Shown in pieces: positions 4,947-57,059 of a stretch of DNA of 64,000 nucleotides (its first letter is position 1; each line of letters starts with the position of its first letter). The stretch comes from an uncultured Gaiellaceae bacterium (GTDB lineage Bacteria; Actinomycetota; Thermoleophilia; Gaiellales; Gaiellaceae), in NCBI GenBank assembly GCA_963770715.1, contig CAVYQX010000010.1, forward strand, positions 19,138-83,137. Reading direction: 5' to 3'. Under the pieces are notes generated by a model. The model saw only the letters and a program-made list of their open reading frames with translations, was not told where the DNA came from and searched no databases. Made by a program: the position numbers and the translations under genes.

Positions 4947-5029
4947 CTCGACGCTGTCGGAGTCCTTGATCAGTTCCAGTACGCGCGACGTCCTCGTCCG
5001 AGAGACGTGATTCGTGCTCGCGGGTTGCG

Positions 5030-6092: not shown

Positions 6093-7645
6093 CTAGGTGA
6101 CAGGCTCGATCTCGCTCGGCCGCCAGGTCTTGTCGAAGAACGGCTGGAGCGGGTTGTAGAGCCTGAGAATCGTCCACCAACCCTTGCCGGGAACGGTCTG
6201 AAGCCAGTTGTCCTCCTTTCCTTCCGGCGCCTCCGGGCCGAAGTAGATGTCGGTCGAGCCGTCGGGGTTCGTCTCGACCGTCCCGGACTGGCTGCCGAGG
6301 CGCGGCAGGGGTTGATCCGTTTGCAGCATGGAGCGTGTCTGGCGGTCGTAGAGGATCACCGACCAGAAGCGGCTCTCGGGAACGTCGGGCGGAAGCGTGA
6401 GCCGGTAGTCGCGCGCGCCGTCGAGGTACTCGCCCTGGCTGTCGCGCATCGCGTAGATGTACTGCGAGCCGATGCCGGTGAGGCGCATGCACATCGCCGG
6501 TGTGATCCCGGTGGCCATGTAGAAGAAGTTGGTGCGGGAACCGAGCTTGCGGGCACCGTCGCTCGCGGCCGCGACCACGCCGTCCGCGGTGATCTGCGGC
6601 GGCGGATCGAGGAACTCGTAGCCACCGATGAAGAGCGCGCTCTCCCACGCCGAGCCCGGGTAGAAGGCGAAGCCCTCCTCGGGTCGTCCCGCGAAGAGGA
6701 CGGTACGGGCGGTGGCGTTGCCGACCTCGACCGCCTCTTCGAGGATCTTGCGCATTCGCGCGTCGGGCTCGAACGGCTTGCCGTGAACGATCCCGACGGA
6801 GGCAAGCAGGCCGAGCAGGTCCGGATCGCTCGCACCCGGCGGCTCCTGCTGCACGAGCTCGTCCACCAGCTCCCAGAACCCGAAGTCGTTCGGGTACACG
6901 GTGTTGAACGACTTGCCCGTCGCCTCGACGAAACGCGTCTCCGGCACCGGAGCGACCGCCCCCAACGGCGCTTCACCGGCGAGGAACGTGCCGACCGCCG
7001 TCCCTTGTGCACCCGGGACGTAGGGAGAGACACGAAAGCCGGTCCGGATCACTTCGACTGGGACCGTGGGATCGTTGTCGATCATGAACGCCCGGCCGAT
7101 CACGGTCGCGCGCGTCGTGCGAACGTGCGAGACGTGGAAGCCGCTGTCGGGCAGCGCCCCGTCGTAGCCTGGCCCCACCAAGAGATAGCGACCGCCCTGG
7201 CCGCGGTCCGGGCCGGACAGGCCGAAGTCCGTGACCCACCGGAACCACATGTCGTCGATGCGTCCCCAGGACCCCCGACGGCGCCTCGATCGACGGCACG
7301 TCGATCACCATCGGCCCGTCGGACAGGTCGACGAAACCCCAGAAGTAGACCGTGTCGCAGTTCGCGGTCAGGAACACCGACGCCGAACCCATCAGCTCCG
7401 GGAAGAACACGAAGTCGTTGTCCTCCGCCCCTATCGAGGCGTACCCGCGACGGATGGCAGCGAGCGATGCGCCCGGCAGCGCACCCAGGAACGCCTCGAC
7501 CCCGTGGACGAAGTCGAGATGGTCGTAGATCAGCGCGGCCGTCGCCTCCGATGGTGCGCCGTCGTCGAACTCGAGTGTTCCGAGCCGACGTCTCGACCTT
7601 GTCGGGCGTCGTGATCGAAGCCAGCATGTCCGCGGTCGTGCTCAT
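6093..7645 (-). pseudogene. DUF1254/DUF1214 family protein, copy 2; two frame breaks (about 7272 and 7587)
   Basis: AGGAGG RBS plus ATG at 7645 (MSTTADMLASITTPDKVET). Then RLGTLEFDDGAPSEATAALIYDHLDF...FFPELMGSASVFLTANCDTVYFWGF (frame of ORF 6973..7410). Then ORF 6093..7250 (MWFRWVTDFGLSGPDRGQGGRYLL...FWSVILYD...). Confidence 0.7.
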
Positions 7646-53184: not shown

Positions 53185-53816
53185 TCAGGGGTCTTCGCGC
53201 GATCGGGATTCGCGTGAGCGAGTCCCGAGCTTCCGCGCACGAACGAGCGCGTCGATCGCGTCGCGTTCTTCGCCGTGGACGTCTCTCAGGACGCGCTCGG
53301 CCTTTTCGATCTCGAGATCGGGAAGCTCGCTGGCGATCTCGTCCGGCGTGAAATGGATCGCGGGGTCGCTCGGCCCGCCGACGCCCTCGGTCATGTTCAG
53401 TGTGTCGTGACCGATGAGCAGGAACGTGCCTCCCGGCGCCAGGGCCGCGGCCGCACGCCGGAGAACGCCGCGCCGCTCGTCTGCCGAGATGTGCAGGTAG
53501 AGGATGACGACGAGATCGAACGCGAGCGGCTCCGGCTCGTACGTCACGAGATCGGCGCACACGAACTCGACGTCGGACTCCGTCACGCTCGGCCCGGCGC
53601 GCGCGCCTTCGAGATCGCGACCTCGGAGTAGTCGACTCCGGTGACGTCCCAGCCGAGCGTGGCCAGCCAGATCGCGTTCTGCCCTTCGCCGCACGCGAGG
53701 TCGAGCGCCCGTCCGGGCTGGAGATCGCCCACCTCGGCGACGAGAAACCGGTTCGGCTTCGCCGCCCACAGGTTCTCGACGGCGGCGTACTGCGCGTCCC
53801 AGTCCTCACGCCTCAC
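53185..53816 (-). pseudogene. Class I SAM-dependent methyltransferase; frame broken near 53600
   Basis: ORF 53583..53816 (RALDLACGEGQNAIWLATLGWDVTGVDYSEVAISKA), then ORF 53185..53769 (VEFVCADLVTYEPEPLAFDLVVILYLHI...LAPGGTFLLIGH). Confidence 0.7.
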
Positions 53817-54951
53817 GCGGCCTCAACCTCCCGGCGACGCGGTACGTCGCACCTAGGGTCAGCGCACAGAGCGTCGCGCCGACGAGGTACGGAGCCGCGT
53901 CGCCTGCGGACTCGGCGAGCGCTCCGCCCGCGGTCGGCCCGACGACCTCGCCGAACGCCCACGAGGTGTTCATGACTCCGAAGGCGAGTCCCTGTGCGAG
54001 TCCGGCCGCCTCGGCCCGATGAGACGTCAGCGCGATGCCGGGCGTGTAGAAGCTGCCGAAGGAGAGCGTCGCGACGACGACGAGCACGGCGACGACGGCC
54101 GCACGCGAGCTCGCCGCCAGCGCGACGGCGACGACGGCGGACGCCGCCAGCGCGACCCGGATCGGCAGCAGCCTGCCCGCGCGATCGGTGAAGCGTCCGA
54201 GCAACGGATTGAGGACGACCTCCGTCAGGCTGGCGGCGAAGAAGACGACCGCGATCGCGAGGGTGCTCCAACCCGCTTCGTCGAGCGTGAGCGGCGTGAG
54301 AACGATGAGGACCCCGAAGAGGAGCGCGGGCAGCATGCTCAGCCAGAGGCCGCCGACGAAGCGCGGGTCGCGGAACGCCTTCGCGAGCCCTCCGAGCGCG
54401 AGCGTCTCGCGACGCCCCGATCGTGCGAGCCCTGCGAGCCCTGCAAAGGCGAGCGTGACCACGCCGACGATGCCGAAGGACAGGCCGACGCCGGCGAGCT
54501 CGGCGAGCCCGCCGAAGACAGGGCCGAGAACCGCACCGAAGATGGCGACGCCGAACGTCGTGCCGATCACCTCGCCGCGCCGCTCGCGCGGCGCCTCGAC
54601 CGAGATCCACGCGAGGGCGCCCGCCCAGGTCGCCGTGCTCGCGATGCCCTGGACGAAGCGCGCGGCGCCGAGTGCAACCGCGCTGTCCGCCGAGGCGAAC
54701 GCGAAGCTCGCGACGGCGAGCAGGAGGAGCGCGCCCACGACCCCGCGCTTCGGCCCCCATTTGGATGCCGCGAGGCCGCCGGGAATGCCCCCGAAGAGCG
54801 CGCCGGCGCCGTACGCGCCCACGAGGAGGCCCGCCCCCGTCTTCGAGAGGTCGAACTCCTCTGCGTACGACGGCACGAGAGGCGTCAGCGCCGTGAAGAG
54901 GAGCGCGTCGACGAAGATGATCGCGCTGACGAGTGCGAGGAGGCGGCGCAT
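53806..54951 (-). CDS. MFS transporter
   Basis: ORF 53806..55038; likely start MRRLLALVSAIIFVDALLFTALTPLVPSY at 54951. It has 12-TM-like hydrophobic periodicity and is intact. Confidence 0.8.
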   Translation of the reverse strand: MRRLLALVSAIIFVDALLFTALTPLVPSYAEEFDLSKTGAGLLVGAYGAGALFGGIPGGLAASKWGPKRGVVGALLLLAVASFAFASADSAVALGAARFVQGIASTATWAGALAWISVEAPRERRGEVIGTTFGVAIFGAVLGPVFGGLAELAGVGLSFGIVGVVTLAFAGLAGLARSGRRETLALGGLAKAFRDPRFVGGLWLSMLPALLFGVLIVLTPLTLDEAGWSTLAIAVVFFAASLTEVVLNPLLGRFTDRAGRLLPIRVALAASAVVAVALAASSRAAVVAVLVVVATLSFGSFYTPGIALTSHRAEAAGLAQGLAFGVMNTSWAFGEVVGPTAGGALAESAGDAAPYLVGATLCALTLGATYRVAGRLRPREA

Positions 54952-54980
54952 CTCGACGAGACTAGCCGCGCAAAGAAAAT

Positions 54981-55081
54981 GCACCGAGCCGGTGGCGCCC
55001 TCGTCCGACCTTCCGACTGACCACCGCCGAAGCGACAACCACTCGGAGAGCCATCAACCTCAGACACTCCGTACTCGGTGC
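54981..55081 (-). ncRNA. Structured RNA-like element U1 (101 nt), 29 nt upstream of the MFS start codon
   Basis: Minus-strand reading: P1 GCACCGAG/CUCGGUGC, hairpin CGGAG..CUCCG, CGC-UUCG-GCG tetraloop hairpin, conserved GUCGGAAGGUCGGACGAGGGCGCCACCGG. Confidence 0.5.
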
Positions 55082-55294
55082 ATCGCGGACTCTATGGATC
55101 GGATGGCAACCGGTCAAGCACCACTCGGACGGAATTCGCCGCAATTTGCGATCTCACCCGGGCAGCGGCTTGCACCGCGGTCGCAAAGTGCACGGATCTC
55201 GCCCGGAGCTTCCCGCGCCGGCACCGCGGCTGGACGCTGGTTGACGGGGGAGAGGCGTCGCGTTCCGGAAGCGAGTGCCGGACCACGACGAAAT

Positions 55295-55395
55295 GCACCG
55301 AGCCGGTTGCGCCTTCGTCCGGCTTTCCGACTGACTGCCGCCGAAACGGCCGCCGATCGGAGAGCCATCAACCTCGGACGCTCCGTACTCGGTGC
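55295..55395 (-). ncRNA. Structured RNA-like element U2 (101 nt)
   Basis: Very similar to U1 (about 15 substitutions by eye). It has the same P1 and the GCCG-UUU-CGGC hairpin. Confidence 0.45.
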
Positions 55396-55528
55396 ATCGC
55401 CGACTCTAGGGGCACCCCTTGGGCCGGTCAAGGCTTCGGGATTCACAACTTCGTCGCAAATTGCGCTCTTTTCTTTTCGCAATGGCCTGATTGCGACTCG
55501 AAGAGCCTGCTCTAGGTCGCGAGGGACG

Positions 55529-55556
55529 AAAAAAGGCCGGGCACCAAGGCCCGGCC
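55529..55556 (-). terminator. Rho-independent terminator on the minus strand (GGCCGGGC-loop-GCCCGGCC followed by U6)
   Basis: + strand reads AAAAAA GGCCGGGC ACCAAG GCCCGGCC. On the minus strand the hairpin is followed by TTTTTT. It lies 9 nt after U3. Confidence 0.6.
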
Positions 55557-55565
55557 GCAAGAATT

Positions 55566-55667
55566 CGCCGAGCCGGGAACGCTTTCGTCCACCTTCCCGA
55601 CGAACCTTCCGCTTCCGCGTAGTGCTCCTCGGGGGGCTTCGTCCTACCGGCGCCCCGTGCTCGGCGC
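55566..55667 (-). ncRNA. Structured RNA-like element U3 (102 nt, most diverged)
   Basis: P1 CGCCGAGC/GCUCGGCG, hairpin CGGGG..CCCCG, CGC-GGAA-GCG (GNRA) hairpin, conserved GUCGGGAAGGUGGACGAAAGCGUUCCCGG. Confidence 0.5.
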
Positions 55668-55823
55668 AGGGAGGAATCTAGGAGATCGGACCTGTCCACG
55701 CAAGGGGGTCCGGCGAAGAAATCTCTCGCTATTTGCGATCAGCCGATCCAGCCCTGGCCGCTCCGGTCGGCGCGGCGCCGGTTGCACGACGAGCTTCACG
55801 AGACGCGGTCTAGGCTCCGCCGC

Positions 55824-57059
55824 ATGCGTGAACGCGCACGCGCCGTCGTGATCGGGGGCGGAGTCGGCGGTTGCTCGATCCTCTACTGGCTGACGCGGCT
55901 CGGCTGGGAGGACGTCGTCCTCGTCGAGCGCGCCGAGCTGACGAGCGGTTCGACGTTCCACTCCGCCGGTCTCGTCGGGCAACTGCGGAGCTCGCTGTCC
56001 CTCACGAGGATGATGATGGAGAGCGTCGACCTCTACCGCTCGCTCGAGGCCGAGGTCGGGCTCGAGACGGGCTGGCACGAGGTCGGCTCGCTGCGGCTCG
56101 TGGAGCGGGCCGCAGCCCTCGGCTTCACGCCGATGACGGGCTCCGAGCTCGAGTTCTACCTCCTCCGAGAGACCTACGAGGAGGCCTGGGCTCACCGCTA
56201 CGAGGATCTGACTCCTTCGGTTCCGTACATCCTCGACTACCACATCCTCGCCACGACCTACGACGAGGCCCTCATCCGCCAGATTCGCAACGGCATGCAC
56301 GGCGCCGGCATCAAGGTGGAGACGTCGAAGGGGGAGGCGTGGCCGGGCCAGCACGAGATCAACTTCCGCTTCGCCGACGCGCTGACGATGGCCGACAACC
56401 ACGCGATCTACAAGAACGGCGCCAAGGAGATCGCCAACCTCAACGGCTGCTCGATCACGTTCATGGCCAAGCCGTTCGAGTCGTGGATCGGGAACTCGTG
56501 CCACATCCACGCGTCGCTCTTCCGTGACGGCGAGCCGGCGTTCCGCGATGATCCCGCGCTCTTCGACTGCTTCCTCGCCGGGATGATCGCGTGCTTCAAG
56601 GAGCTGGCGATCTTCCTCGCTCCGACCATCAACTCGTACAAGCGCTACGCCGCCGGGAGCTGGGCGCCGACGACGCTCGCGTGGGGGAACGACAACCGCA
56701 CGTGCGGGTTCCGGCTCGTCGGCCACGGTGCGTCGCGGCGCGTCGAGACGCGGATCCCCGGCGGTGACGTCAACCCGTACCTCGCGTTCGCGGCGATGAT
56801 CGCCGCGGGCCTGCACGGGATCGAGAACGAGCTCGAGCTGCCGCCCGGTCTCGAGGGGAACGCCTACGAGTCGGACGCCGAGCGCTTCCCGGCGTCGCTG
56901 CGCGAGGCGATCCTCGCGCTCGAGCTCGGCACGACGGCACGTGGTGCGTTCGGCGACCAGGTCGTCGACCACTATCTGAACTACGCGCACACGGAGCAGG
57001 CGCTGTTCGACAAGGTCGTCACCGACTGGGAGCGGATGCGGCTCTTCGAGCGCGGCTAG
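55824..57059 (+). CDS. Chimeric ORF: FAD-dependent oxidoreductase (DAO-family) N-terminus (~95 aa) fused in frame to a glutamine-synthetase-family catalytic domain lacking its own N-terminal domain
   Basis: MRERARAVVIGGGVGGCSILYWLTRLGWEDVVLVERAELTSGSTFHSAGLVGQLR...WHEVGSLRL, then AAALGFTPMTGSELEFYLLRE...WPGQHEINFRF...CHIHASL...TINSYKRY...AWGNDNRTCGFR. Confidence 0.7.
   Translation: MRERARAVVIGGGVGGCSILYWLTRLGWEDVVLVERAELTSGSTFHSAGLVGQLRSSLSLTRMMMESVDLYRSLEAEVGLETGWHEVGSLRLVERAAALGFTPMTGSELEFYLLRETYEEAWAHRYEDLTPSVPYILDYHILATTYDEALIRQIRNGMHGAGIKVETSKGEAWPGQHEINFRFADALTMADNHAIYKNGAKEIANLNGCSITFMAKPFESWIGNSCHIHASLFRDGEPAFRDDPALFDCFLAGMIACFKELAIFLAPTINSYKRYAAGSWAPTTLAWGNDNRTCGFRLVGHGASRRVETRIPGGDVNPYLAFAAMIAAGLHGIENELELPPGLEGNAYESDAERFPASLREAILALELGTTARGAFGDQVVDHYLNYAHTEQALFDKVVTDWERMRLFERG

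Follow-up and report, generated by a model that had tools for sequence, protein, structure and literature searches.

The 870-bp gap at positions 54952-55823 of the DNA analysed here (64,000 nucleotides from an uncultured Gaiellaceae bacterium, called the window below) carries three homologous units of ~105 nt. We read them as stand-alone, factor-controlled small RNAs that act in trans and probably bind protein, and we give this joint reading a probability of roughly 0.6. The gap separates two divergent genes, a minus-strand gene for a transporter of the major facilitator superfamily (MFS) and a plus-strand open reading frame (ORF) starting at 55824. The units, named U1, U2 and U3 from the MFS gene outwards, lie on the minus strand inside modules of 270-315 bp; repeat search, alignment and an nhmmer profile confirm all three. 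Each module runs, 5' to 3', from an A-rich stretch through an 11-bp palindrome and a predicted promoter to the ~105-nt RNA and a stop signal.

The nhmmer profile and a covariance model placed the units at 55082-54978 (U1), 55396-55292 (U2) and 55668-55562 (U3), minus strand, in agreement with a sequence-only reading that had described three homologous minus-strand units at these places. Their start-to-start distances are 314 and 270 nt, and U1 ends 29 nt from the MFS start codon (ATG 54951), just as that reading had said. The predicted RNAs are as follows.

U1 RNA, 54981-55082, minus strand: one long irregular hairpin, its apical stem closed by UUCG; -55.3 kcal/mol when folded as the minus strand versus -34.1 as the plus strand.
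U2 RNA, 55295-55396, minus strand: long irregular hairpin with a UUCG-capped apical stem; fold of -62.3 kcal/mol, z-score -6.4.
U3 RNA, 55562-55668, minus strand: long irregular hairpin closed by the helix GCGCCGAG/CUCGGCG and topped by a stem with a GGAA cap; placed by the covariance model.

The shared unit pattern had 3 exact matches, compared with 0.39 expected by chance with up to 3 mismatches. On the minus strand the covariance model scored 122.9 bits for U2, 119.7 for U1 and 86.9 for U3 (E 1.5e-18), and on the plus strand 29.4 for U2 and 12.8 for U1. The same model found no further unit elsewhere in the 64-kb window; a weak match at 6690-6757 fell inside coding sequence and was attributed to chance. 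Coding potential of the units was rejected: the three codon phases hold 12, 15 and 14 variable columns, which gives no 3-nt periodicity, members differ by indels of 1-2 nt, and a frame opened by an AUG where U1 begins closes after 7 codons. The earlier argument that the region is non-coding is thus upheld by the missing periodicity, but not its remark that the crossing ORFs are short, as one of 497 amino acids (aa) spans the unit region on the plus strand, antisense to the MFS gene (54188-55681). At two related loci, L005 and L006 (3898-4735), ORFs of 92 aa (with a Pfam CC_Se_fam match on record) and 214 aa have been called within the RNA array; these are most likely spurious gene calls over RNA genes.

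Single-sequence folding gave one long irregular hairpin that was far more stable on the minus strand, where many G-U pairs are conserved. From its base upward, the hairpin consists of a closing helix of 8-12 bp, a bulged A, CGG/CCG and CGC/GCG helices and an asymmetric internal loop, above which stand a 3-bp helix, a GA(R) bulge, a covarying upper stem and a variable apical stem. The conserved unpaired parts are the bulged A, the asymmetric internal loop (5' ..UAG / 3' GAAA) and the GA(R) bulge, and the apical loops are UUCG or GNRA tetraloops, freely interchanged between members. Most of the conservation lies in the lower two-thirds of the hairpin, in its helices and internal loops, and the aligned members share no conserved single-stranded stretch of seed length, their short internal loops measuring 3-6 nt. 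When three divergent members were folded singly, each adopted this hairpin (z-scores -3.4 to -7.2).

The hairpin was then examined in two alignments. For 76 non-redundant units aligned with MAFFT, paired cells made up 92.9%, compared with 21-42% when the 3' partners were slid by 1-3 columns; 17 pairs changed on both sides, and the observed values were reached by none of 500 shuffles. The second alignment, of 105 distinct metagenome members, was fitted to the covariance model; here the share of paired cells was 86.9%, and 328 cells changed on both sides, versus 130 in shuffles. Among these 105 members, the closing helix covaried at pairs 4:161 (AU 56, GC 40) and 5:160 (GC 54, UA 35, CG 6), and the upper-stem pairs 36:134 (CG 54, UA 37), 37:133, 40:130 and 46:125 took three to six pair types. 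These results show that covariation supports one long irregular hairpin. Of the fold proposed from the sequence alone, the closing helix and the tetraloop-capped hairpin are retained, but a CGGAG/CUCCG hairpin and a single-stranded tail are not. The CGGAG/CUCCG hairpin was paired in 93% of cells in close relatives but in 67% in the wider family, where it showed almost no covariation and 3 of its 5 pairs were unpaired in 43-73 of ~102 sequences; a four-arm "cloverleaf" incorporating this hairpin was discarded because of the same pairing failure. The purine-rich "tail" is the 3' strand of the long hairpin, and its GGACGARRGCG..CCGG segment pairs with the 5' strand in pairs that covary. The compensatory changes cited for U3 hold in the closing helix and in the tetraloop swap, but the change from CGGAG to CGGGG fits the long hairpin at least as well.

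Each unit is preceded by promoter-like sequences and by a copy of the palindrome, and is followed by a stop signal. The elements are listed from U3 to U1.

U3 promoter, 55675-55703, minus strand: -35 box TTGCGT (55703-55698), 17-nt spacer and -10 box TAGATT (55680-55675), predicted from sequence and alignment.
U2 promoter, 55403-55431, minus strand: TTGACC, 17-nt spacer and TAGAGT, 9 of 12 consensus positions, predicted by consensus scan.
U1 promoter, 55089-55117, minus strand: TTGACC, 17-nt spacer and TAGAGT, predicted by consensus scan.
Palindrome of the U3 module, 55727-55737, no strand assigned: CGCTATTTGCG, differing from CGCAAWTTGCG at one position; ~60 nt ahead of the predicted U3 RNA start.
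Palindrome of the U2 module, 55455-55465, no strand assigned: CGCAAATTGCG, from the repeat search.
Palindrome of the U1 module, 55140-55150, no strand assigned: CGCAATTTGCG, from the repeat search.
U3 intrinsic terminator, 55529-55556, minus strand: predicted, 8-bp all-GC stem followed by T6.
U-rich tract after U2, 55280-55294, minus strand: AUUUCGUCGU, then GGUCC.
U-rich tract after U1, 54972-54980, minus strand: AUUUUCUUU, terminator-like together with the closing helix.

In the consensus scan, 0.0 sites of the form TTGACC-17-TAGAGT, as found ahead of U1 and U2, were expected in shuffles. Of 288 distinct upstream regions of homologues, 285 carry a TANNNT -10 box that ends 5-6 nt ahead of the closing helix, and 282 of the 288 carry a -35 box of TTG type at a spacing of 17-18 nt; the spacer sequence varies. 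The same promoter architecture was found in 73 of 79 metagenome units, which form a second, more divergent set. The palindrome CGCAAWTTGCG, already seen by the sequence-only reading, occurs in all modules if the one mismatch of the U3 copy is allowed; the 1.54 Mb of DNA that was fetched contained 264 exact palindromes, of which 256 lay 40-90 nt upstream of a unit. An A-rich stretch usually precedes the palindrome on its upstream side. The palindrome is most likely the putative operator of a dedicated transcription factor; a literature search on the operator sequence found nothing relevant.

The stop signals are of two types. A U-rich tract directly 3' of the closing helix was present in 75/79 middle units (criterion: five or more T within 8 nt, immediately beyond the helix), 104/107 last units and 66/86 single units. 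Among 117 first units, 50 passed a crude cut-off (T5+) for a later T-run, the mark of a separate terminator, and U3 is of this type: the hairpin and U6 that had been noticed after it are indeed present at 55556-55529 on the minus strand, and both arms of the stem have changed among orthologues (for example, from GGCCGGGCC to GGCCGAGCC). Immediately after the U tract, 28/78 metagenome units carry a GGUCC or GGACC motif, which in the window stands at 55280-55284 (minus strand). These promoter and stop signatures make it likely that each unit is an RNA gene in its own right, with a promoter and a stop signal to itself, and they lend support to a family of small RNAs, which had been offered before as one of two interpretations.

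Tandem TGTGGAAAA repeats were also observed ~20 nt upstream of the CGCAAATTGCG palindrome at several single units (L013, at about 4990-5020, L018, L074, L075, L096 and L106). On the opposite strand these repeats read TTTTCCACA, which is DnaA-box-like. At L221 and L147, TTATCCACA- and TTGTCCACA-like sequences lie upstream of the units at the place of the TGTGGAAAA repeats. The genes near repeats of this type encode sigma factors, APRT and an FHA protein, and not dnaA or dnaN.

Homologues were collected in a genome scan with the unit pattern (one genome per species, at least 119 stretches) and in a metagenome scan with closing-helix variants only (at least 120 stretches). More than 400 homologues were found in genomes of Gaiellaceae, Gaiellales and Thermoleophilia and in soil metagenomes, with 1-4 copies. 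The sequence-only reading had held that its RNA proposal would fail without homologues and covariation in other genomes; homologues were recovered, and covariation stood above shuffles. Among the matches listed, almost all genome-scan stretches came from Gaiellaceae, Gaiellales, Thermoleophilia or unclassified Actinomycetota genome bins, most loci held 3 tandem units (range 2-4), co-directional and directly upstream of an MFS orthologue, and ~20 loci held single units elsewhere. The metagenome members differ in the sequence of the closing helix and in the length of the apical region. The pattern also matched in Streptomyces, Kitasatospora and one viral contig; these matches were set aside as chance, the covariance model giving no match there. 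The MFS protein assigns the window to a Gaiellaceae-like metagenome-assembled genome. At orthologous loci whose MFS proteins are 78-92% identical to that of the window, all carry three units that are nearly invariant, while spacers and flanks diverge, and U3 is identical in L001-L006, which fall within this range. A literature search on non-coding RNAs of Gaiella or Gaiellales found nothing.

The genes downstream of the units differ widely among the matches listed: an MFS gene (99 loci), a gene for a 66-70-aa protein with two transmembrane (TM) segments (22 loci), smpB, a sigma factor gene and an acyl-CoA dehydrogenase gene. At 20 loci among these matches, a unit and a SpoU rRNA methylase gene meet tail-to-tail, with rplT and pheS alongside. 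The two-TM protein is encoded downstream of single units at L013 (5243-5443, oriented), L037 and 20 other loci; its gene appears leaderless, with a TAGACT -10 box 7-9 nt ahead of the start, and the protein had no Pfam or NCBIfam match. At L079 (1484-1604, minus strand) and L123 (7368-7476, plus strand) the RNA gene lies directly upstream of smpB, and at L079 a tmRNA gene (252-611) lies ~0.9 kb beyond the smpB-adjacent unit.

The MFS gene beside the array appears to have a promoter of its own.

MFS transporter gene, 53806-54951, minus strand: 381 aa; adjoins the RNA array as a neighbour, not as a regulated target in our reading.
MFS -10 box, 54959-54964, minus strand: predicted, TAGTCT, 7 nt ahead of the ATG; implies a leaderless mRNA.

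In all 64 distinct orthologous MFS upstream regions, a TANNNT box lies 6-8 nt ahead of an ATG or GTG start, and a Shine-Dalgarno-like sequence was seen in 1 of the 64. Across orthologues the last unit lies ~25 to ~150 nt from the MFS start; the -10 box moves with the start codon. Leaderless genes are established in actinobacteria, and the -10 signature is interpreted on that background: the MFS gene probably has its own promoter and its mRNA is probably leaderless, because this -10 box lies near the start and a Shine-Dalgarno sequence is missing. The public annotation gives the MFS protein 392 aa and a GTG start inside the U1 closing helix (54984, minus strand); the 381-aa start (ATG 54951), unlike the annotated one, agrees with the orthologues and with the -10 box.

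To compare the units with known RNA families, positions 54500-56300 were searched on both strands with cmscan against the 4227 models of Rfam 15 (E ≤ 10). No Rfam model matched the units in this region at that threshold, in line with the remark of the sequence-only reading that it could place the units in no class known to it. The lone weak match in the region, to SorX-like RNA, lay on the U3 terminator and reached 21.7 bits against a gathering score of 46.6. Divergent members gave no relevant Rfam match at E ≤ 1 or at the gathering score, and a scan of the whole window returned tRNA-Met only. A hammerhead core, a K-turn and the domain IV motif of signal recognition particle (SRP) RNA were considered by eye and none fits, in agreement with the Rfam models. 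The units are apparently an undescribed small-RNA family.

The resemblance to the guanidine-III riboswitch (ykkC-III, RF01763) that had been suggested comes down to a short string, CGGACGAGG..GCGCC..CCGG, and a transporter gene nearby. However, RF01763 matched neither the region at E ≤ 10 nor the divergent members; guanidine-III is a ~41-nt pseudoknot, whereas the segment that resembles it supplies the 3' strand of a long hairpin whose pairs covary; and the units do not lie in a transporter 5' untranslated region, the MFS gene having its own -10 box and the downstream genes being diverse. We therefore do not follow the suggestion.

Two other groups of known RNAs are closer in arrangement or in shape. 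RsmX/Y/Z with the GacA box, Qrr1-5 with LuxO sites, the tandem PrrF1/PrrF2 and AbcR1/AbcR2 are multi-copy small RNAs under the control of a factor. The units resemble them in being stand-alone genes of ~100-150 nt with a sigma-70-type promoter and an intrinsic terminator, in the conserved palindrome at ~-60 to -70, in carrying the same operator at each copy and in paralogues that sometimes stand in tandem. They differ from these RNAs in sequence and structure (no Rfam match), in their actinobacterial host and in forming one long hairpin with conserved internal loops, without several short GGA-loop hairpins or a single-stranded seed. GGA, the motif exposed several times in hairpin loops of Csr/Rsm-type RNAs, occurs here in the GGAA tetraloop of U3-type members, where U1 and U2 types have UUCG. 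6S RNA, bacterial Y RNA (YrlA) and 4.5S SRP RNA are rod-shaped protein-binding RNAs, and like them the units pair their 5' and 3' ends into a long irregular helix, are conserved in helices and internal loops and, in many members, carry a GNRA cap. In contrast, the 6S, Y RNA/YrlA and SRP models gave no match even at E ≤ 10 in the region or at E ≤ 1 in divergent members, a ~105-nt unit is too short for 6S RNA, the units lack the GGAAGCAGC motif of SRP RNA, no rsr gene lies near them, and they occur in up to four tandem copies under a dedicated putative operator.

In the mechanism that we propose, three paralogous small-RNA genes in the 870-bp gap would be transcribed separately from the minus strand. 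A dedicated transcription factor would bind the palindrome and switch expression, with all copies under this one factor. A sigma-70-type promoter (TTGAC-like -35 box, 17-nt spacer, TAGNNT -10 box) would start the RNA at the first base of the closing helix, and transcription would stop at the U-rich tract after the closing helix in U1 and U2 and at the separate GC hairpin with U6 in U3. The conserved non-Watson-Crick internal loops would form a protein-binding platform, as decoy or scaffold, and the triplication in Gaiellaceae may raise the dose or diversify the product. Action in trans appears probable, somewhat less firmly than the existence of separate RNA genes. Binding of protein rather than base-pairing is a tentative choice that we hold at slightly under even odds; it is favoured over an antisense role because conservation lies in helices and short non-Watson-Crick loops and not in a single-stranded seed.

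Several points weigh against this reading. The transcription starts and 3' ends of the units are predictions from sequence. The AUUUCGUCGU tract of U2 is a weak stop signal, so read-through into U1 and the MFS gene is possible, and the GGUCC/GGACC motif could pair with the invariant GGACGAAA of the unit, hinting at an alternative structure. The alignment of metagenome members was fitted to the covariance model and leans towards the long hairpin. Clustering of neighbouring genes revealed no recurrent RNA-binding protein or regulator gene near the units. Finally, the array stays co-directional beside the MFS gene even at L046, L056, L065 and L073, where the MFS proteins are 54-61% identical, and this lasting linkage could reflect a local function rather than inherited gene order.

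Among the other explanations, the units could be trans-acting small RNAs that pair as antisense with mRNAs, possibly with the 5' coding end of leaderless mRNAs such as that of the MFS gene. Many regulatory small RNAs are likewise stand-alone genes with an operator in front, and the multi-copy paralogues differ in their apical parts, as this explanation would allow; however, the apical UUCG and GNRA tetraloops swap freely, and the conserved bases are mostly paired or confined to the 3-6-nt internal loops, with no seed-like strand visible, and we regard it as unlikely. A local cis effect, in which the upstream promoter-terminator modules would tune the leaderless MFS promoter and the RNA product would be secondary, either through occlusion by RNA polymerase (transcriptional interference) or through regulated read-through into a leadered, poorly translated MFS mRNA, draws on the linkage just mentioned: at ~100 loci, the divergent ones included, the array without exception points the same way as the MFS gene and lies 25-150 nt from the start of that gene. 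In the window the U1 U tract overlaps the expected MFS -35 position, and single copies keep the layout of unit, U tract, -10 box and leaderless ORF ahead of the two-TM gene. Yet a cis device does not need a near-invariant sequence and covarying helices along 105 nt, and the 20 tail-to-tail loci and the loci with unrelated downstream genes do not fit it, and we hold a local effect to be quite improbable.

A tandem riboswitch or structured leader, in which ligand binding by each unit would control termination and hence MFS expression, was the main interpretation of the sequence-only reading, and we consider its chances slim. A conserved structured RNA does lie directly upstream of a transporter gene, the closing helix with its U tract could act as a ligand-stabilised terminator, and alternative pairing is conceivable (the CGG/CCG segments; GGACGAAA with UUUGGUCC). 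But each unit has a separate conserved promoter, and a stop signal, in place of one promoter upstream of all, the MFS gene has its own -10 box 7 nt ahead of its ATG with a Shine-Dalgarno-like sequence in only one of the 64 orthologous regions, no Rfam riboswitch model, ykkC-III included, matched at E ≤ 10, and a plain long hairpin lacks a multi-helix junction. Moreover, the downstream genes are functionally unrelated or convergent, and therefore a cis-regulatory leader cannot explain the spread of the units. Least probable, and all but excluded, is a dispersed mobile repeat, similar to repetitive extragenic palindromic (REP) elements or miniature inverted-repeat transposable elements (MITEs), or a DNA-level palindrome without RNA function. 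Tandem duplication of the module and the differing genomic contexts between lineages would suit it, but there are three copies in 64 kb, all in the one gap and none scattered through coding DNA as the sequence-only reading had feared, and one locus in each fetched stretch (up to ~14.5 kb). The strong strand asymmetry and the G-U pairs indicate RNA, the internal promoter and terminator are conserved, the repeat search found no terminal repeats, and the matches in Streptomyces, Kitasatospora and the viral contig lack support from the model.

The genes flanking the array and the MFS gene show irregularities of their own. In the plus-strand ORF at 55824-57059, the first ~95 residues of an FAD-dependent oxidoreductase (DAO) are fused in frame to a glutamine synthetase catalytic domain (Gln-synt_C); relatives carry a full 803-aa DAO/FAO_M/GCV_T gene at this position. 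A true deletion or rearrangement may have produced this ORF; otherwise the genome assembly holds a chimeric join here. The polyamine (Puu-like) context that had been invoked for the units thus dissolves into a truncated oxidoreductase joined to a glutamine-synthetase domain and, given the 803-aa DAO/GCV_T gene of relatives, is not conserved. On the other side, a SAM-dependent methyltransferase gene (53185-53816, minus strand), whose counterpart in relatives overlaps the MFS gene at its end, is broken into two reading frames, with residues 1-72 in 53583-53816 and residues 81-195 in the frame of 53185-53769; this frameshift marks either a pseudogene or a sequencing error.

Gaiellales and related Thermoleophilia are abundant soil Actinobacteria that are mostly uncultured. 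In them, the unit RNA is more strongly conserved than the surrounding proteins, and the module of promoter and operator-like element is kept throughout the family. A covariance model, predicted 5' and 3' ends and an operator sequence are now in hand for the unit family, the annotation of the array as a "triple riboswitch" is corrected, and the adjacent MFS gene is probably leaderless. More speculatively, and with the odds clearly against it at present, the units may be the RNA half of a lineage-wide circuit of transcription factor and small RNA across Gaiellales and related soil Actinobacteria, with a dedicated operator and with three or four tandem genes in Gaiellaceae. The RNA would then represent a new class of abundant, rod-shaped regulator that sequesters or scaffolds protein, a functional analogue of 6S, CsrB or Y RNA. 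On present evidence the family is mechanistically not surprising, and it is a testable lead in an understudied branch of the phylum.

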